Assembly (NCBI GenBank): GCA_040876265.1
Contig: JBBDPN010000002.1
Coordinates: 3,954 to 67,953, forward strand
Direction of reading: 5' to 3'
Length of the DNA: 64,000 bases
Source of the DNA: Candidatus Woykebacteria bacterium
GTDB lineage: Bacteria > Patescibacteriota > Microgenomatia > Woykebacterales > RBG-16-39-9b
Position numbers and translations under genes: made by a program. A model generated the notes under the pieces. The model did no database searches. It was not told where the DNA came from and worked only from the letters and a program-made list of their open reading frames with translations. Shown here piece by piece: positions 1 to 34,501 of this stretch. Each line of letters opens with the position of its first letter. Within the stretch, counting starts at the first letter, position 1.

Positions 1-910
1 CCTTTCAGGCGAATCAACACAAATAGATACTCCCTCCGGTCTCTCTTCCACAGCCGATGTTGAGAAAAGTACTTCAGTTTACGACCCGAAAATAATTGGT
101 GTAGTATCCACCAATCCTTCTGGCGAAGTGCTAGGCGAAGCTGCCAAAGACTTTCTTAACAATCCGAAACCAATTGCGATCATTGGACGGGTGCCGGTGA
201 AAGTTTCTGCTGAGAATGGAGATATTGCTCCAGGAGATCCGCTGACCTCCTCCAGCACGCCTGGAGTAGCCATGAAGGCTACGCAGAGCGGCCCTATTGT
301 AGGTAAGGCGTTGGAATCCTTCGACGGGGCTCAGGACGACATAGGTCGGATAATGGTGTTTGTGAGTGTGGGATGGTTCGTAGCTCCTCTGGATTCTGGA
401 TCTGGTATGGAGGATCTAGGCAGTATGAGCAGCCTGCATATCGAGGGCCTAACATCCAACACCATCAATACTCAACTACTGTTCGTCGGTGATAGGCAGC
501 TATCCATGGGCCCAGCCGGCGAGCTGGTGGTGGACGGCGACGTGAACGTGCTGGGCGACGTCACTATCGAAGGTGATTTAAACATAGATGGAGCTGTGCT
601 TGCTAAGTCATTAAGAACTAAAAGTATAGAGATTGATATACCCGCACCGGATCCAACAACTGGCAAATCCGCCGCAACTATTGGTGACGCTACGATTGTC
701 GCTGGACAGACTGAAATAGTAGTCAAGACCACCGCTGTGAAACCTGATAGCAAGATTTTCGTCACTGCCACCAGTACAACTAGCGGCCAGATCCCCTACG
801 TAGTTGAAAAACTAGCCGGTGAAAGCTTCAAGGTGAGGATCGACTCCCCAATCGGAACAGCTATTAAGTTCGATTGGTGGATAATCCAAGTGGCTAGTAG
901 TGGCAACTGA
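1..910 (+). CDS. 3' part of a large secreted beta-helix-like surface protein (5' end outside window). Paralog of the 11378..14119 gene.
   Basis: The frame is open from nt 2 with no stop until 910. The last ~250 aa align with the C-terminus of the 11183..14119 ORF (YD..IGVVST..GRVPVKVS.ENG.I.PGD.LTSSSTPGV.MKAT). Both end in an AIKF(D/T)W(W/F)I(I/L) motif. Confidence 0.6.
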   Translation, partial: LSGESTQIDTPSGLSSTADVEKSTSVYDPKIIGVVSTNPSGEVLGEAAKDFLNNPKPIAIIGRVPVKVSAENGDIAPGDPLTSSSTPGVAMKATQSGPIVGKALESFDGAQDDIGRIMVFVSVGWFVAPLDSGSGMEDLGSMSSLHIEGLTSNTINTQLLFVGDRQLSMGPAGELVVDGDVNVLGDVTIEGDLNIDGAVLAKSLRTKSIEIDIPAPDPTTGKSAATIGDATIVAGQTEIVVKTTAVKPDSKIFVTATSTTSGQIPYVVEKLAGESFKVRIDSPIGTAIKFDWWIIQVASSGN

Positions 911-8760: not shown

Positions 8761-9789
8761 ATGACTGCTCAACTGTCCTACAAAAAAATAATTACCATCA
8801 TCGCTGCTACAGCGTTTCTCCTCTCAACCTTTTTTGCAACCGTCGCGGCCCAGGAAGACACAACCGAGAACGGTACCACTGCCGGCATCGGTATCCAAGT
8901 CTCCGCACCGATCTACAACTTTCAAATTGATCCAGGAGATAGCGGTCAAGAAATAATTAAAGTACGCAACGTGGGTGATAAAGCAGAGACCTTTTACCCG
9001 GAGGTTTTTGATTTTCGTGCCTCCGGCGAAACTGGTACACCGGCCTTTATCCTAGACTCCCAAGCCGAGACTTATACCTACTCACTGGCTGCCTGGATAA
9101 CTATTTCCAAGCAGCCCATTACTCTGAAACCCAACGAGTCCACCGCTCTAAACTTTACTATAAACGTACCCAAAAACGCTGAGCCGGGTGGCCGCTACGC
9201 CGGCGTACTTTTTGGCACAGCGCCTCCGACAGCTGGCGCCAACCAAGTAGCCATTTCCAACAAAGTCGGTTCTCTCGTTCTTGTTCGAGTCTCTGGAGAT
9301 GCCAAAGAAGAAGCTAGTGTCGAAGAATTTTCCACTCCCAAGAATTTTTATCGTGAAGGTCCGGTGGATTTTGTAGCTAGAATTAAAAATACCGGCAATG
9401 TCCACGTGATACCCAAAGGAAATATTGATATTAAAGACACCTTTGGTCGCAAGGTCGCCAGCTTACCGGTAAATGAAAAAAATGGCAACGTGCTACCAGA
9501 AAGCATCCGCCGCTTTGACAAAGACAGCAGCAATCTCATCTGGGAACCGGGCGGGTTCACTGTTGGCCGCTACACCGCTACTTTGGCTCTGACATACGGC
9601 GATCCAGCCAAAAATCTGACCGCCCAGGTCACTTTTTGGGTCGTACCTTGGGTACAGCTACTGATAATTGCTCTGGCAGTAATCATCGTAATACTACTGC
9701 TCATCTTCCTGGTAAAACGCTACAACAAATGGGTTGTGGAGCAGGCTGAAAAGAACCAAACCAAAGAAACTCCTCCTGCCGGCACCTAA
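8761..9789 (+). CDS. Cell-surface protein with signal peptide, Ig-like region and C-terminal TM anchor (DUF916/DUF3324-like, CscA-like architecture)
   Basis: N-terminal signal peptide. C-terminal hydrophobic helix LLIIALAVIIVILLLIFLV followed by KRYNKW. This architecture is typical of the TM-anchored member of WxL clusters. Confidence 0.45.
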   Translation: MTAQLSYKKIITIIAATAFLLSTFFATVAAQEDTTENGTTAGIGIQVSAPIYNFQIDPGDSGQEIIKVRNVGDKAETFYPEVFDFRASGETGTPAFILDSQAETYTYSLAAWITISKQPITLKPNESTALNFTINVPKNAEPGGRYAGVLFGTAPPTAGANQVAISNKVGSLVLVRVSGDAKEEASVEEFSTPKNFYREGPVDFVARIKNTGNVHVIPKGNIDIKDTFGRKVASLPVNEKNGNVLPESIRRFDKDSSNLIWEPGGFTVGRYTATLALTYGDPAKNLTAQVTFWVVPWVQLLIIALAVIIVILLLIFLVKRYNKWVVEQAEKNQTKETPPAGT

Positions 9790-9794
9790 AGCCG

Positions 9795-10478
9795 ATGAGC
9801 TATAAAAACTTATTATTGCTGCTGCTAATAGGCCTCCCTATTCTTTTTCCTCCCATCGTCTCAGCTCAAGATGTTGATGTTGGTGCTACGGTGGACAGAG
9901 AACCTCCCACCATCAATATCACCTCCCCTCTGGATGGCTCCACTGTTTCCGAAATTGTAAATGTAACCACGAGTGTGGGCGACGATGCTGGGATTGATAA
10001 AGTAGAGTTTTATGTTGACGGGTTTTTGAAACTGACGGACAGCTCTGCCCCTTACTCTTTTTCTTGGGATAGTGGTACGGTTGGCAACGGCAGCCACATC
10101 ATCCGGGCGCGGGTTTACGATATTGTGGGCAAAACTGCCCAAGATTCCATTACAGTTACTGTTAACAACAGTACAACACCTGCTTCTCCGCCACCTGCGA
10201 TCGAAACTCCGACTGACGATGGCGGAGAAACTCCAGAAGTCCCAGCCACACAACTACGAAGAGTCACGCTGATCCAAGATCCACTTGGTTACCTGGAGCA
10301 AGAAACCGAGAAGGGGCTACTTTTTGGCCTGGACAAAGACGCCCTACTAGGATTTATTGTCGCAATACAACTTGCCATCATCCTACTTCTCCTTTACCTA
10401 CTTAAACACCTCCGTTCTCGACGCAGTAAGGCCAGAGGATCCTCCTCATCAGAGCCAAACTCTTCACTCAACAAATAG
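9795..10478 (+). CDS. Surface protein: signal peptide, bacterial Ig-like domain, Pro-rich linker, C-terminal TM anchor with basic tail
   Basis: Starts 6 nt after the previous stop. Ig-like block INITSPLDGSTVSEIVNVT...VEFYVDG. C-terminus IVAIQLAIILLLLYLL followed by KHLRSRRSKAR. Confidence 0.5.
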   Translation: MSYKNLLLLLLIGLPILFPPIVSAQDVDVGATVDREPPTINITSPLDGSTVSEIVNVTTSVGDDAGIDKVEFYVDGFLKLTDSSAPYSFSWDSGTVGNGSHIIRARVYDIVGKTAQDSITVTVNNSTTPASPPPAIETPTDDGGETPEVPATQLRRVTLIQDPLGYLEQETEKGLLFGLDKDALLGFIVAIQLAIILLLLYLLKHLRSRRSKARGSSSSEPNSSLNK

Positions 10479-10848
10479 TGAAATCGCAACTCAACCTTTT
10501 CTCTTAGCCGCCTTACGAGCAGCACCTCAACTTACCGGCCTTGGAATAGTCAGCGTCAAAAATTGAGGTTTTCGAGCCGACTTAAAAAGGAATTTTTCAC
10601 GTCCGATCCGCCAACTGGCGGAGAGTTTGAAAAATTAGGTGAGAAAACCGATATTTTAGCTGGAGGTTCCCGGCCGGCAGTTTTGGCTCCACCTTTGCTG
10701 TCAAAGGTGGAAAAAGAAATCTTTCCACGAATTTGACAAGCAAGCAGACTACAGGTTAAAATTAAGGGTATAAATAGGTATAATTATACCCTGCTAAGGG
10801 TACAATACGCAGGGTGTAATCCTGCGGATTATACCTTAGGACCTACCC

Positions 10849-11260
10849 ATGGAGCTGCCCAACTCTAGCTTCTCTGTAAGCGAGATCATCTCGCAGTACA
10901 GAGAGTACTTAAAATCTCATAACTACTCTACCCCCACGGTCAAAAACTATTTATCTGACCTGCGTCATCTTTTTGTTTGGCTCTCAGAACATCACGGTGA
11001 ATTTCGCTTCTTTCATATAAACGAAGCAAGTCTGCGCACTTACCGTTCTTACCTAAAAGAAAAATTTCGTGCCAGACCCTCCATCGGCGCGCGACGTCTC
11101 TCTTCCCTGCGCAAATTCCTCACTTGGGCAGCTGGGAAAAACTTCATTACACCACAGCTTTACCAGTCAGTAACGCCGGTACTTGAGGCTCTCGAGCGCG
11201 AGCCAGCTACCCCAATTACTCTGGTCCCAGGCAGCGGCATTGCTGGGCAAGCCAAAAAGG
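10849..11260 (+). pseudogene. Tyrosine recombinase/integrase N-terminal SAM-like (core-binding) domain only; catalytic domain absent
   Basis: The first ~110 aa align with the XerC/XerD N-terminal domain (TVKNYLSDLRHLFVWL ... RRLSSLRKFLTWA). After the C9 tract at 11263 the frame reads low-complexity junk to a stop at 11454. Confidence 0.5.
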
Positions 11261-11377
11261 AACCCCCCCCCTGTCCCGGACAAAATACATCAAAAAATAA
11301 TACACCATATCAAACACACTCGACCAGGCTGGTACCATCGCTACCACCAGCGGGATTGGGCCAGCACTTTGCACACC

Positions 11378-14119
11378 GTGATAATGATCCTCTTTGTGAT
11401 CGCCGTTGGATCTTTGATCCTCTACACCGAAGTGATCAAACCGCAGCTGGATAGTACTCGAGATCAATTTGCCGAAGATCTGGGCGACGTGCTAGCCGCC
11501 GCTTCCCCACCGCGGATACTTTCTTTTCAAGGTAGGCTGACAGACAGCTCTGGAGATCCGGTCACCAGTGCTACCGACGTGGTTTTCAAAATCTATGACG
11601 CGCGAACTGGCGGTACTCTGCTTTGGACATCAAAAACTTGGTCCGTAACTCCGGATTCCAATGGCATTTTCTCGGTTTGTCTTGGCGGCCAAGACACTAC
11701 TGATGACTGTCTGCTCAATGGTGTCGCTGACACCGCTATCCCCTCTACTCTATTTTCCGAAAACGCAGCTTTGTATCTTGGTGTCACCGCCGGAAGCGAC
11801 AGTGAAATGACGCCTCGCCAAAGAATCGCTTCTGTTTCTTACGCCTTAAATTCAGATACTTTGGACGGCTTCCACGGCTCCCAGTCCCCTGGTGCGAACC
11901 AAGTACCGGTGCTTGACGGCAGTGGGAACCTGGCCTTCGCCGGAGCCGCGACCATAAGTACTGGTAGTTCTGGCGCCTTAACCTTGGACTCTGCTTCTGG
12001 AACAGTTGGTCTCGGGTCTGGTGATTTGTTTTTAACAACCGGTCAGACTTCTACTTTTACTTCCAGTACCTCACTTATCACCGCGGACAATGTCTTTGTG
12101 ATTGGTGCCTCAACTGGTACTTTTGTTCAGATGGACGCTCAATCACTTCCCATCCACACGGGTGATATAACAGGTGCGGGCAAATTAATCGGCGTGCGAT
12201 CTTTGTTTGATGATATTGCTGGCAACACCAGCAGAAGGACCCTTGCATCAGTACGTAATTTTGAATCTAGTCTTACCACTATCAGCTATGCCCAGGCGGG
12301 AATCACCATAACTAACTATGCGGGTCTTTGGATAATTGACCCGGAAATGGATGGAGGTGCAAACGACACTATAATCACCAATCCTTACGGTATCTATATT
12401 GAAGATTTCAGCACTAGCGAGGGTGGAACATTTACCAACACGCCCCGCGCAATTTATCAAGCTGGTACAGATGATTACAATATCCTCGCTGGCCAGACCC
12501 GAATCGGTGGCACCAGCGACCCAGCCTCTGGCATCGAGTTGGATGTGACTGGTGACGCAAACGTATCCGGCAGTTATTACCAAGGTGGCACCCAAGGTAT
12601 TACTGCCAATTGCGGTGCCAGCGAATTCCTCCAAGACCCAACTGTCTCCGGCGGTATTGTGACTGCAGGAACCTGTGCCTCAGCTGGAGGTAGTGGCGAG
12701 AGTTTCTTTTCGTTTCTCACCAGCACCAAGACCGGCGCTGGTTATCAGTTTTCGGCGACCGGCCAGGTAAATTCAAACTCGACCGATTTTACGCCAAATA
12801 ACACCGATGGCTCGGTCCAGGCAAATTTTGCCGGCTATGTCTTTGTCACCGCCACCGTCAATTTCGAGTCATATGATGACTCCACCACAGTCACCGCAGT
12901 TGAGGTAAATGGATCCGTGGTAGCTCAAGACAGACTAAGTTACAGCAACGACGAAACAGACATAATTAATTACATCAGCCAGACTGTCACCTGGGCTGGG
13001 GCAGTGGCCGATGGCGATGATATCAGCGTGGATATTCCGACCTTGTCTGGTGCGACCGTCAACAATGATGGAACGGCGGGCGAACAAGCCGGTACACTAG
13101 TAGTCCAGAAGATAAGAACCGGGGCCGATGTAGCCGAGATGTATCCAACGGCTGATCCTACACTTAATGCAGGAGATGTGGTTAGTATAGACCCCTCTCT
13201 TCGCGGCGGAGTAAAAAAATCGGATAAACAATACGATTCACAAGTACTTGGGGTTGTCTCAACTCTTCCCAGTCTAGTGATCGGATCTCCGATTGGGACA
13301 GGTAGTGGGCCTCATCACACGGCAGTTGCTTTGACCGGTCGAGTCCCAGTGAAAGTTTCGGGTGAGAATGGGCCGATTGAGCCCGGAGACTTGCTCACTT
13401 CTTCGTCCACACCAGGTGTGGGAATGAAAGCAACCCGTGCAGGGTACGTAATCGGTCGGGCTCTCACCAGCCTCAGCTGTCCGGGCGTTAACACCTCGGA
13501 GGTGGATAGAACGGTCTCGCCAGATGGTGGCAACCCCTGCCAAGGCACGGTCGTAGTTTTCGTAGGTACCCACTACGCCAACCCCGCTCAACTGGATGAG
13601 TCTGGAGATCTATCCTCAACCTTCGATTGGGATCTGGAAAATGAAGAGAACTTGAAAGCGCTGGCGAAATTGCGAGTGGACAAAGATAACAATATAGTTA
13701 CTTCTATATCAGATGGTAGCAGGTTTATCTGGGAAAACTCTCTCGGTGAGGCAGTCGCTTGGGTAAACAGCGCTGGCGAAGCTTTTTTCCAGAAAGTAAC
13801 CGCCACTGTGGCTGATTTTGGCAAGCTGGTCTTCGGTGAGGCCGTGGTGAAAAAAGAAGCCAAAACGGCCGGGGAAGCCTCCTTCCAGACCAACGAAACC
13901 GAAGTACTGATCAGATCAGACAAAGTGACAGAAGATTCCTTGATAAATCTAACCCCAACTACCAAAACTGGTGGCGTCTCACTCTATGTCAAAGAGAAAA
14001 AGCCTGGTGAAGGCTTCGTAGTAGCTTTAGAGAGGAACTCCGGCGATCTCCCCGACCAAGCTACCGCTTCGGCAACGCAAGCAATCAAATTTACCTGGTT
14101 CATCCTCAACCAAGAATAA
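11378..14119 (+). CDS. Large (~910 aa) membrane-anchored, Gly/Thr/Ser-rich beta-helix-like surface protein with conserved C-terminal domain ending in FTWFIL
   Basis: Long ORF open from 11183. The likely start is GTG 11378 or ATG 11384, just before TM helix MILFVIAVGSLILY. The C-terminal 250 aa are paralogous to the 1..910 gene. Confidence 0.6.
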   Translation: MIMILFVIAVGSLILYTEVIKPQLDSTRDQFAEDLGDVLAAASPPRILSFQGRLTDSSGDPVTSATDVVFKIYDARTGGTLLWTSKTWSVTPDSNGIFSVCLGGQDTTDDCLLNGVADTAIPSTLFSENAALYLGVTAGSDSEMTPRQRIASVSYALNSDTLDGFHGSQSPGANQVPVLDGSGNLAFAGAATISTGSSGALTLDSASGTVGLGSGDLFLTTGQTSTFTSSTSLITADNVFVIGASTGTFVQMDAQSLPIHTGDITGAGKLIGVRSLFDDIAGNTSRRTLASVRNFESSLTTISYAQAGITITNYAGLWIIDPEMDGGANDTIITNPYGIYIEDFSTSEGGTFTNTPRAIYQAGTDDYNILAGQTRIGGTSDPASGIELDVTGDANVSGSYYQGGTQGITANCGASEFLQDPTVSGGIVTAGTCASAGGSGESFFSFLTSTKTGAGYQFSATGQVNSNSTDFTPNNTDGSVQANFAGYVFVTATVNFESYDDSTTVTAVEVNGSVVAQDRLSYSNDETDIINYISQTVTWAGAVADGDDISVDIPTLSGATVNNDGTAGEQAGTLVVQKIRTGADVAEMYPTADPTLNAGDVVSIDPSLRGGVKKSDKQYDSQVLGVVSTLPSLVIGSPIGTGSGPHHTAVALTGRVPVKVSGENGPIEPGDLLTSSSTPGVGMKATRAGYVIGRALTSLSCPGVNTSEVDRTVSPDGGNPCQGTVVVFVGTHYANPAQLDESGDLSSTFDWDLENEENLKALAKLRVDKDNNIVTSISDGSRFIWENSLGEAVAWVNSAGEAFFQKVTATVADFGKLVFGEAVVKKEAKTAGEASFQTNETEVLIRSDKVTEDSLINLTPTTKTGGVSLYVKEKKPGEGFVVALERNSGDLPDQATASATQAIKFTWFILNQE

Positions 14120-14150: not shown

Positions 14151-14801
14151 TTAATCAAGGGTTTGATGTTTGGCAAGCTCCAAGGTTCTACCATAATCTG
14201 CTTGGTCCAAGACGAAAGATCTGTATTTATTTTTAGAAGCTCCTGGAAATAAATCCAGGGTCAATTCGGTATTCACTACACCCAAAGAATTTTTTCCTAT
14301 ATACTCCAGATACGACGACCACTCGTAGGTTGACAAATCATTAGTAAGTCCCCCTACAAGTGGGTTCAAATGAATATATCTCGAAACGTGAAGCAGTAGC
14401 TCGTCAGATTCGATTTTCACTGCTTTAAACGGCCCTTGGAACAGGTGCCCGACTCTCTTGTGTTTTGTGTTGAAATATTTTGTATAACTATTTGACAACC
14501 TGCCAATAAAAGTAGATATTCCATTTTCGGTGTTTTGCCGAAGGAGCATGTGAAAATGGTTTGGCATCAAGCAGTAAACGTAGATTTCAACCAGATTTTG
14601 AGCCGGTGTTTCGTGATCTTTTATCATTTTATGGGATTTAAAAGAAAATCTAGTTGGAACATTGGTTTTTAGATAATAAATCAAAGTATTATAAAAACGA
14701 CGATAGTCTCTTCTATCGTAAAAAATATTTCTTTTTTCTACACCCCTATTGAAAACGTGATAAATACCCCCATCTCCCAATGCTTCTTTACGATATGGCA
14801 T
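14151..14801 (-). CDS. REP-associated tyrosine transposase (RAYT) copy 2
   Basis: IYHVFNRG, YCLMPNHFHMLL (HUH), RVGHLFQGPF and YIHLNP blocks. Paralog of 1292..1981 at about 50% identity by eye. Confidence 0.75.
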   Translation of the reverse strand: MPYRKEALGDGGIYHVFNRGVEKRNIFYDRRDYRRFYNTLIYYLKTNVPTRFSFKSHKMIKDHETPAQNLVEIYVYCLMPNHFHMLLRQNTENGISTFIGRLSNSYTKYFNTKHKRVGHLFQGPFKAVKIESDELLLHVSRYIHLNPLVGGLTNDLSTYEWSSYLEYIGKNSLGVVNTELTLDLFPGASKNKYRSFVLDQADYGRTLELAKHQTLD

Positions 14802-32933: not shown

Positions 32934-33241
32934 GCGCAAGCACAAGGCGCTATTCTAGCAATATTAAATTTTGGTGTCTAGAGGGAACTTTAGGTTGGAG
33001 GTGAATTACCTACGCTTCTACGAAGTGAGTAAGAAACAAATATAAGTTTTGCGTAAATCACTTGCCTAAAATCCCTCCTGTGAATGATCCTTCGACGCTG
33101 CTCAGGATCACCCCGAGCTTGCCGAAGGGTGAGAATAATTCACTCATCAACCGCAATATAGCACCAATTTGGGCTTCCGTCAAGGTAGAGACAGACCAGT
33201 TAGCACTCTTGAAAAGTGCTTTGCTAATTTTTAGCCCACGC

Positions 33242-33300
33242 TAGTGGTCGCAGCACGCAAGAGTATCTAAATAATGAGTTTCTAACGAAATTATTTAGTT
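33242..33300 (-). promoter_or_regulatory. Hairpin (CTAAATAAT..ATTATTTAG) followed by box TAYTCTTGCG..GCGACCACTA, spacer copy; boxB/boxA-like antitermination candidate
   Basis: The same two-part element recurs at 37357-37435 upstream of 16S. It lies upstream of tRNA-Ala/23S in the sense orientation. Confidence 0.4.
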
Positions 33301-33380
33301 ACGGAGCGGGTTTAGCAACAGCGCAGCACGCGGAGTAGCTGGCTTTGAGCGCTAGCGAAACGGCATAAGCTACGAGCGGG

Positions 33381-33734
33381 CTATCTGTGGCTTTCGTTGA
33401 GGATCTTCCAGTTCCAGTTTCTTTTTTTGTTGGAGCCGATTTTCTTGATGATGGCTTTTTCGAGGTCAATTTTCAATGATCCAGAAAGATGTAGTAATCG
33501 TTGGAGTACGTCGCCAAGCTCTTCTTCAAAACCACCTTTGCCTTTAATTTTTTTGTGGCGATAAGCCTCATAAGCTTCGGAGATTTCGCTGTGAAGCAAG
33601 GCTATCTTTTCCGGCACGCTTATATCTTTCCGACTTGTGCCAAAACCTTTTTCCCGGGCTTGTTCCATAACGAGTTCCGTTAATTGTTTCAGGGTAAGAT
33701 TTTTCACGAAGGTATTATATACCCGTAAATCCAA
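33381..33734 (-). CDS. MazG-like nucleoside triphosphate pyrophosphohydrolase domain protein, encoded inside the rRNA spacer
   Basis: KIALLHSEISEAYEAYR ... EELGDVLQRLLHL matches the MazG/NTP-PPase helix pair with the EExxE/ExxD metal ligands. Same strand as the rRNAs. Confidence 0.55.
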   Translation of the reverse strand: MDLRVYNTFVKNLTLKQLTELVMEQAREKGFGTSRKDISVPEKIALLHSEISEAYEAYRHKKIKGKGGFEEELGDVLQRLLHLSGSLKIDLEKAIIKKIGSNKKRNWNWKILNESHR

Positions 33735-34009
33735 TCGCGAACTTGGTCTGGATCATAAAAACTTCCATTAAGAATAAAATAATGTGTCTTGGGAAATTCA
33801 AGAATAGTGTCATTAATTAATTCAAGCTCGTTTTCTATCGAACCAAAAAAAGATTCGCAGGGTCTTACCCTGTGAGTAAAATGATACCGCCCAAGAGAGT
33901 GTATTTTGATAGTCATATGATTCTCCATGTGAGAAATTTTGGTACCCATAACTATATTATACAAATCTTATCTGACCCATTGAGTTCATCAAAAAAAAAG
34001 GGGGGGGGA

Positions 34010-34384
34010 TTAAAACAAGGTTTCGGGTTTGACCCTGTGTTTAATCAAGCATTCATTGTAAAAAGCGTTTATTTCATCTGGTGTTTTCAACCCACCTTTT
34101 AACTGGATGTAGCTATAATAATCTGTAATGCCACCAACGTTAGGTATCAATTCCGGCTCGTAAATAGCTGCATTCAAGGGTCTGTTGTCAGCAATTTTCG
34201 CTTTTTTTCTAAATTCGCTTATACAGATTTGCCTTACCTCCACTGGTCTCCATTCAAACCAATAGAAACTACCAATCAAAAATAATGTTATTGAGGCTAA
34301 AGATACTGATAAAAAGATGGTCTTAGATTTGTTCATAAATATTTTTGAAAATATGGTGGGCGCGGATGGGATAAACCGCTCCAT
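34010..34384 (-). CDS. Small membrane-anchored hypothetical protein inside the rRNA spacer
   Basis: 124-aa ORF with one N-terminal TM helix (TIFLSVSLASITLFLIGSFYWF). On the same strand as the rRNAs. No recognisable family. Confidence 0.3.
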   Translation of the reverse strand: MERFIPSAPTIFSKIFMNKSKTIFLSVSLASITLFLIGSFYWFEWRPVEVRQICISEFRKKAKIADNRPLNAAIYEPELIPNVGGITDYYSYIQLKGGLKTPDEINAFYNECLIKHRVKPETLF

Positions 34385-34501
34385 AATTCGAAACTTTCAG
34401 TTTCTTAAGTATTCCCGCGTTTTGCGACCACGCTAAGCGTGGGCTACGAACCTGGGACCCCTACATTAGACGCAACTAAAGCTGCTATCTTTTGCGATTC
34501 A

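Follow-up and report, generated by a model that had tools for sequence, protein, structure and literature searches.

A run of nine cytosines (C9) in the genome of a Candidatus Woykebacteria bacterium raises the question of whether the two coding segments that meet there are two genes or one. The tract lies in a 64,000-nucleotide stretch of contig JBBDPN010000002.1 (the whole of which is called the window here), at the junction between an open reading frame (ORF) annotated as a site-specific integrase (ORF1) and a long ORF for a surface protein, open in the +1 frame (ORF2). The initial annotation left three readings of this junction side by side: a phase-variable switch, a decayed integrase marking an old integrative element, and an assembly error. 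Judging from homologous sequences, ORF1 and ORF2 are the halves of a single gene. As the initial annotation had proposed should be checked, relatives were inspected at the same junction; all the close ones read the SAM-like domain of the first half and the transmembrane-fibre part of the second as one frame, with no homopolymer between them.

The junction between ORF1 and ORF2

Reading of the sequence and a homopolymer scan both confirmed the C9 tract at 11263-11271 on the plus strand. It falls inside the coding region, 414 nt past the start codon of ORF1 (10849-11454, 201 aa), where it encodes residues 139-141 (Pro-Pro-Pro); the 60 residues that follow in this frame have no homologue, and the homologous protein P0003 aligns only to the first 42% of the fused query described below. 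The +1 frame is open through the tract. Its stop-to-stop opening begins at 11174 and its earliest start is the TTG at 11183, from which it runs to 14119 (978 aa). The large ORF of the initial annotation is thus present, while the word "giant" applied to it overstates its size. Removing one C from the tract yields KKEPPPVPDKIHQKIIHHIKHTRPGWYHRYHQ followed by the transmembrane segment, in a fusion of 1089 aa (hand count). This agrees with the claim that C8 would place the SAM-like domain in frame with the membrane-anchored fibre, and homologues carry that fused form as their normal state. The repaired length compares with 1099 aa in the L084 orthologue and with a span of 1099-1277 aa among intact orthologues. 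In short, C9 specifies 201 aa with a nonsense tail and C8 a full-length product collinear with the intact orthologues, a single frame being restored either by C8 or by C11. No further defect is found in the 138 codons 5′ of the tract or the 948 codons 3′ of it; since both halves are otherwise intact, the break is recent, reversible or artefactual. The features of the locus are the following:

10733-10790, plus strand: promoter-like region and conserved element (promoter scan, 11/12)
10849-11262, plus strand: first gene part in frame 0, with start codon, SAM-like four-helix domain (~10888-11166) and Pro-rich linker (Pfam/NCBIfam and homologue alignment)
11263-11271, plus strand: C9 homopolymer, site of the frame break (sequence; homology switches frame here)
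11272-11454, plus strand: 60 codons and stop read out of frame, forming the tail of the 201-aa "integrase" of the annotation (no homologue aligns)
11272-14119, plus strand: second gene part in frame +1, with motif, transmembrane helix, beta domain, shaft and C-terminal module (translation, homologues and AlphaFold2 (AF2) model)

In GenBank the first half appears as MEX0621937.1, "site-specific integrase" (201 aa, 10849-11454), and the second as MEX0621938.1, "hypothetical protein WD187_03020" (907 aa, 11396-14119), whose GTG start lies inside the transmembrane helix. This annotation misdescribes both gene halves.

The first 342 residues of the in-silico C8 fusion were used as a junction query. 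Single proteins cover 96-99% of it (P0001, P0002, P0010, P0013, P0014 from CPR3, and P0015), with identities of 59% for P0001 and 54% for P0002; P0001 was compared as a protein, its contig placement not having been obtained. Loci were also sought in species-representative genomes (one per species; 185,579) and in Joint Genome Institute (JGI) metagenomes. About 65 loci match both the SAM-like and the fibre parts, and one unbroken frame spans the two in 23 of the 32 genome loci examined. Within the window's own subfamily every member is intact: L004/L084/L085 (69% identity), L086 (63%), L005 (50%), L087 (42%) and L001. L005 belongs to another Candidatus Woykebacteria; L084/L085, L086 and L087 are metagenome loci. 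A further locus, L003 (protein P0004), is 82% identical in the fibre part and has the juxtamembrane motif in frame with the transmembrane helix; its contig stops 135 nt upstream of the called start, short of the junction, and is uninformative there.

Alignments also locate the change of frame. The first gene part aligns with the N-termini of intact P0001, P0002, L004 and L005, and homology in frame 0 reaches ~11232 (LVPGSG in the window, LVSPS in L004). From the tract onward homology is in frame +1, where PPVPDKIHQK matches TPPVPDKIHQK of L005. Since homology keeps to frame 0 as far as ~11232 and follows frame +1 from the tract, the frame change is pinned to the C run. At the nucleotide level, the L005 junction peptide is encoded by ACT CCT CCA GTG CCA GAT AAA, and the window with C8 reads EPPPVPDKIHQK. 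The prolines at the junction thus belong to a conserved peptide for which orthologues use mixed Pro codons (CCT CCA in L005). Because no orthologue has a run at that place, the C run is, on this sequence comparison, a lineage-specific synonymous build-up. CCC is the least used Pro codon in the window (19.8%), and CCC-CCC makes up 1 of its 43 Pro-Pro pairs.

Architecture of the encoded protein

The gene family comprises type-II membrane proteins of Patescibacteria. Their parts follow in a fixed order: a cytoplasmic SAM-like helical domain, a disordered Pro-rich linker, a His-rich juxtamembrane helix and one transmembrane helix, then a beta domain next to the membrane, a long shaft like that of a phage tail fibre, and at the C-terminus an autochaperone module like that of phi29 gp12. 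This architecture is a less expected result than the frameshift. At the N-terminus, Pfam Phage_int_SAM_1 (PF02899) matches residues 14-95 of ORF1 (E 7.6e-10), and SAM_5 and SAM_4 match as well. NCBIfam XerC/XerD models are matched over their first ~95 positions only (TIGR02224 positions 2-94), at 33-42 bits against cut-offs of 330-335, and neither Pfam nor NCBIfam finds a recombinase catalytic domain, with its R-K-H-R-H/W-Y active site, past residue ~108 of ORF1 or anywhere in ORF2. The initial annotation had confined the recombinase part of ORF1 to an N-terminal SAM-like domain, and these searches bear it out. XerC and XerD share this N-terminal core-binding domain; unlike them, neither the window gene nor any intact homologue has a catalytic domain, so the protein is not a recombinase.

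The second gene part carries the His-rich juxtamembrane motif IHQKIIHHIKHTRPGWYHRYH at 11285-11347 (family form (I/V)HQK..HH.K..RP.WY..YH), the transmembrane helix at ~11378-11425 and the membrane-proximal beta domain at ~11495-11870, which starts PPRILSFQGRLTD; after the fibre shaft comes the C-terminal module, at ~13127-14116. Motif, transmembrane helix and beta domain are conserved in the alignment of homologues. An AF2 model made on the intact homologue P0001 (18-sequence alignment) has a helical SAM-like domain at residues 9-115 (pLDDT ~90), a disordered linker at 117-140 that corresponds to the location of the tract, two short helices at 150-171 bearing the His-rich motif, a transmembrane helix at 175-204 and a confident beta domain at 226-330. 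Since basic residues precede the transmembrane helix, the N-terminus should be cytoplasmic. Foldseek returned no significant match for the multidomain N-terminal model, an integron-integrase N-domain standing at rank 47.

The last 379 aa gave an AF2 model with a mean pLDDT of 76 and a core above 90, which Foldseek matched to the C-terminal autochaperone of phi29 gp12 (3suc, 3gqh_A; E 1e-4, prob 1.00). With this pre-neck appendage protein (3suc, 3gqh) the window protein shares the C-terminal fold, at a TM-score of 0.58 on the target; sequence identity is 13%, and the window protein is cellular and membrane-anchored, not a virion component. No autocleavage site was identified in the window protein. 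Homologues of the same 379 residues are numerous in Patescibacteria and Bacteroidota, and a few carry PF11962, the Peptidase_G2 intramolecular-chaperone domain. Other family members terminate in S74 chaperone, tail-collar or collagen modules. A sequence search of ORF2 against PDB and PHROGs gave no match.

Residues 105-173 of ORF2 match NCBIfam Bdello_MAT_N (NF053851) weakly (27.8 bits against a family cut-off of 60, E 1.9e-6). [quoted passage not shown] The MAT proteins of Bdellovibrio bacteriovorus would share with the window protein the order of beta-rich domain, then long fibre with variable tip, and have multicopy genes as it does; some members have a C-terminal chaperone, and the role proposed for them is recognition of another bacterium's surface (PMC10769870). 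They differ from the window protein in that the match stays below the family cut-off and in that a cleavable signal peptide precedes the beta domain and the whole protein ends up outside the cell, where the window protein has a folded cytoplasmic DNA-binding-type domain of ~140 residues and a transmembrane anchor. Furthermore, the C-terminal module of the window protein resembles phi29 gp12, not S74.

The head of the protein varies within the family. In P0005, P0009 and L088 (from 2770) it is a MerR/HTH_17 helix-turn-helix (HTH) domain, with the His-rich motif, transmembrane helix and fibre kept. That the head can be exchanged for a MerR-type HTH marks it as a modular DNA-binding-type domain and not as a recombinase remnant. 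Thus, as modelled, the gene encodes a surface appendage resembling a tail fibre, which is anchored in the membrane and has a folded head in the cytoplasm. The searchable literature holds no description that we could find of such a widespread membrane-anchored fibre family with exchangeable cytoplasmic DNA-binding-type heads, nor any report linking the SAM-like domain with Patescibacteria.

Two variations on the head were also seen. P0010 and P0013 have two SAM-like domains within one protein. In a sister subfamily (L019 5911-7574, L022, L024, L025, L027, L028 and L030), three consecutive genes specify a free SAM-like-only protein of ~160-190 aa, a small conserved ORF of ~55-65 aa with the motif DPAxEGxPY, whose frame varies, and a second SAM-like domain fused to the transmembrane helix and fibre.

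Origin of the frame break

We think it somewhat more probable than not that the break is real, that is, a slipped-strand +1 indel in a hypermutable tract that leaves the fibre gene OFF. This would have come about as follows. The Pro-Pro-Pro codons of the linker have turned into a C run in the window's lineage, a run presumably long enough for hypermutability, and a slipped-strand replication indel would then have added the extra C, the assembled C9 being one C above the in-frame C8 and two below C11. The sampled population would be mostly OFF for the fibre, and expression would return with a slip of -1 or +2. Even in the OFF state a little of the fused protein may be made through a +1 slip on CCC-C by tRNA-Pro, a tRNA capable of such slips. 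C9 puts the transmembrane-fibre part out of frame: of the possible starts only one takes in the cytoplasmic domain, and translation from it stops after the 60-residue nonsense tail. The initial annotation had a switch acting on the N-terminus or the expression of the surface protein; its effect would be less to alter the N-terminus than to cut the whole transmembrane-fibre part off from its start codon. Within this reading, it is a tentative proposal that the tract is kept as an adaptive switch for the phase variation of a fibre used in host contact or as a phage receptor, and an unselected recent indel in a fragile tract is a possibility that we rate slightly lower.

The kind of gene fits. 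The protein is surface-exposed, fibre-like and encoded by a multicopy gene (the C-terminus of a paralogue lies at 2-910), a class in which known phase-variable bacteria have tracts of this kind (PMC8355987, PMC5084427). In Campylobacter, Neisseria, Haemophilus and Helicobacter, too, contingency loci have a G or C run of ~8 or more in the 5′ coding part of a surface-structure gene, and a one-base slip toggles between full-length and truncated products (PMC8355987, PMC5084427, PMC2823697). They differ from the present case in that no tract-length variation is documented here, in that the 64 kb contain a single coding tract and not several, and in that the window tract stands between two domains, so that the OFF state still makes the cytoplasmic one. 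A second precedent comes from Mycobacterium tuberculosis, where reversible frameshifts occur in short C tracts, for instance the 7C of glpK (10.1101/717272, PMC10334774). Common to glpK and the window gene is a single poly-C run in an otherwise ordinary gene with no dedicated contingency repertoire; in glpK, reversible +1/-1 indels cause a transient loss of function, and the variation there has been documented across thousands of isolates as well as experimentally, whereas here it is inferred from one consensus sequence. By analogy, the mechanism is the familiar homopolymer-tract frameshift, not yet demonstrated here, in a phylum for which we found no phase-variable report of this kind in the searchable literature.

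Several observations weigh against a slippage switch. No orthologue examined has a homopolymer at the junction, hence there is no evidence of selective maintenance. No C8 or C11 allele and no near-identical strain turned up in 5.8 billion proteins, the 185,579 species genomes, the JGI metagenomes and an exact-cluster look-up; the nearest relatives are at most 69% identical and have no tract, and the 201-aa product is known from one sample only (NCBI and Logan). The window has two C9/G9 tracts against 0.54 expected, a number reached in 12 of 100 shuffles. The tract count is therefore within chance; what exceeds chance is a tract at the frame change of a gene that is continuous in homologues. 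There is no other coding G/C tract of at least 8 within the window, and hence nothing points to contingency loci spread as a set across the genome, nor does the window hold other simple-sequence repeats of note that would hint at a phase-variable repertoire. Finally, the assembly that Logan made from run SRR27977662 agrees with the window letter for letter across 16.9 kb, C9 included, but it probably rests on the same reads as the GenBank assembly, and the two are not independent for a systematic homopolymer miscall.

This last point bears on a sequencing or assembly artefact, the most serious competitor, which we hold possible but unlikely. The gene would be intact in the organism itself, with C8 (or C11), and the C9 of the consensus would be a miscount. 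Homopolymers are classic sites of consensus indels, and C9 is the longest C run in the window; all close homologues are intact, and both halves of the gene are otherwise perfect, just as an artefact predicts. Set against this is the agreement of the Logan assembly, the product of a k-mer graph assembler, on the same C9. In addition, other homopolymers in the window (C7 at 23921, several C6/G6, A9 and T8) break no frame. Long frames cover 82% of the window, and some contain C6, C7 or G6 runs unbroken; the data are therefore unlike error-prone long reads, and the assembly is not generally prone to homopolymer error. If tract lengths were found to be mixed, they would be direct evidence of slipped-strand phase variation on a surface fibre in an uncultivated ultrasmall episymbiont, a fibre that probably helps to decide attachment to the host or serves as a receptor for phages. 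Slipped-strand phase variation has so far been documented mainly in host-adapted pathogens.

Programmed recoding would make the C9 functional as it stands: normal decoding would give a soluble SAM-like protein and a slip the full-length fibre, in a set ratio. The route could be RNA-polymerase slippage, or else tRNA-Pro slipping +1 on CCC-CCC-CCC-U with the help of a Pro-Pro-Pro stall. CCC-C sites are prone to +1 slips and are restrained by m1G37 and EF-P. A +1 slip anywhere in the run gives exactly the conserved EPPPVPDK, and the separate SAM-only protein beside the fibre gene of the sister subfamily suggests that a free SAM-like protein may function. Yet the slippery site and two-frame layout are not conserved, orthologues having one frame and no homopolymer; RNA structure in 11250-11370 does not exceed that of shuffled controls (z = 0.04); and, unlike classical +1 sites, the run is followed by neither a stop nor an evident rare codon in the A site. 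Recoding is thus improbable.

We see similarly little chance that the arrangement is a natural one of two genes, with the SAM-like and transmembrane-fibre proteins expressed separately as GenBank annotates them. The gene callers behind the GenBank and Logan records do both call two genes, and in the sister subfamily a free-standing SAM-only gene lies upstream of the fibre gene. Shine-Dalgarno sequences are weak or absent before many window genes, so that their absence before ORF2 is no counter-argument; as many real genes of the window also lack one, the Shine-Dalgarno sequence was dropped as evidence on independent initiation of ORF2. What speaks against two genes is where the conserved cytoplasmic motif lies: at 11285-11347 it precedes the annotated GTG start at 11396, and it can be reached only from the TTGs at 11183 or 11240, which would need a 215-272-nt overlap with ORF1. 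The starts at ATG 11384 and GTG 11396 lie inside the transmembrane helix and would leave 13-17 hydrophobic residues and no charged n-region, and the final 60 residues of ORF1 would be without any homologue.

A decayed tyrosine integrase of an old integrative element abutting a surface-protein gene, for which the Phage_int_SAM_1 family, the GenBank name, two tRNA-Ala genes 6 kb upstream and the IS200-like Y1 transposase gene downstream might speak, is rejected as very improbable indeed, since intact fused homologues never carry the catalytic domain: dozens join the SAM-like domain directly to motif, transmembrane helix and fibre, P0005, P0009 and L088 have the MerR-type HTH in the same position, and Pfam and NCBIfam detect no catalytic-domain remnant. 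SAM-like-only "integrases" in Patescibacteria genomes should accordingly not count as markers of mobile elements.

Upstream element, neighbouring genes and the second tract

A single promoter-like site was found upstream of the gene, and scanning detected no promoter or terminator between its halves. It consists of TTGACA at 10733-10738, an 18 nt spacer and TAAAAT at 10757-10762, followed by GGTATAAATAGGTATAATTATACC. Inside GGTATAAATAGGTATAATTATACC lies a 12-nt palindrome, GTATAATTATAC, at 10778-10789, preceded by GGTATAAA (window 10767-10790). The conserved element is found a single time in the window, where ~0.04 copies would be expected. All six SAM-type orthologues have the 12-mer upstream without any change, and it is absent elsewhere in the 163 loci fetched; its sites include L001 901-912, L004 2632-2643, L005 5933-5944, L086 2912-2923 and L087 2936-2947. 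Upstream of the MerR-type homologue L088 the palindrome is absent. The palindrome may be a gene-specific operator, or just a very strong conserved promoter.

These features recall ToxR and CadC, whose topology the window protein is predicted to share (an N-terminal cytoplasmic DNA-binding-type domain, one transmembrane helix and a large extracytoplasmic part). The resemblance is in mode of action only. In homologues of the window gene the N-domain is swappable for a MerR-type HTH. The DNA-binding fold is different, and the likeness of the window protein extends to topology and palindrome, with DNA binding, signalling and any target putative. One might conceive of the family as contact sensors, in which the tethered DNA-binding-type head acts on GTATAATTATAC in its own promoter and, in the window's lineage, a heritable poly-C switch frees the head as a soluble protein and removes the fibre. 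We consider this an outside chance. If true, it would couple the phase state of an adhesin to transcription, and neither a phase-variable locus nor a membrane-tethered regulator-adhesin would have been described in Patescibacteria before.

The left edge of the window (2-910, plus strand) contains the C-terminal end of a second fibre paralogue, which runs off that edge. It shares the GRVPVKV...TSSSTPG module with the main gene, and the identity between the two C-termini is 33%. Genes for Big_7 and Fn3-like surface proteins lie between the two fibre paralogues (8761-10478). Three different genomes have an IS200-like Y1 transposase-family gene beside the fibre gene, though its place and direction are not the same in each: window 14151-14801 (minus strand), L084 2203-2859 (minus strand) and L001 132-791 (plus strand). 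The three proteins are 51-52% identical and have a conserved HUH-like LMPNHFH motif; the Y1 enzyme may be domesticated or syntenic rather than an active insertion sequence. The closest relative, L084, also has a C9 run, at 2018-2026 (= L004 1714-1722), which is intergenic, 11 nt past the stop of the upstream fibre paralogue, and not at the junction. Several public metagenome-assembled genomes with the Patescibacteria-type gene (L004, L006-L008 and many other loci) are labelled "Candidatus Nanoarchaeia archaeon" or "uncultured Gammaproteobacteria bacterium", and the taxonomic labels of those records look unreliable.

The initial annotation had also pointed to a second tract, G9 at 34000-34008, between two ORFs within the spacer of the rRNA operon. 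The tract is there and so are the ORFs on either side. It was rejected as a split-gene junction since it is intergenic and the flanking ORFs are unrelated. A run of nine adenines (33991-33999) directly precedes it, so that the minus strand reads TAA-T-C9-T9, and the tract begins 1 nt past the stop of a 124-aa membrane-protein ORF on that strand (34384-34010). An extended -10-like box, TGTATAAT, lies ~30 nt downstream of the minus-strand C9T9 tract. The main value of this second tract is as an in-sample control for homopolymer noise. The spacer itself, between tRNA-Ile and tRNA-Ala, is unusually long (1.57 kb, 32934-34501) and contains three ORFs on the minus strand: one of 124 aa that has a transmembrane segment, one of 86 aa, and a third, of 117 aa, that matches a MazG domain (E 1e-4). 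It is unusual for protein genes to lie within the spacer of an rRNA operon.

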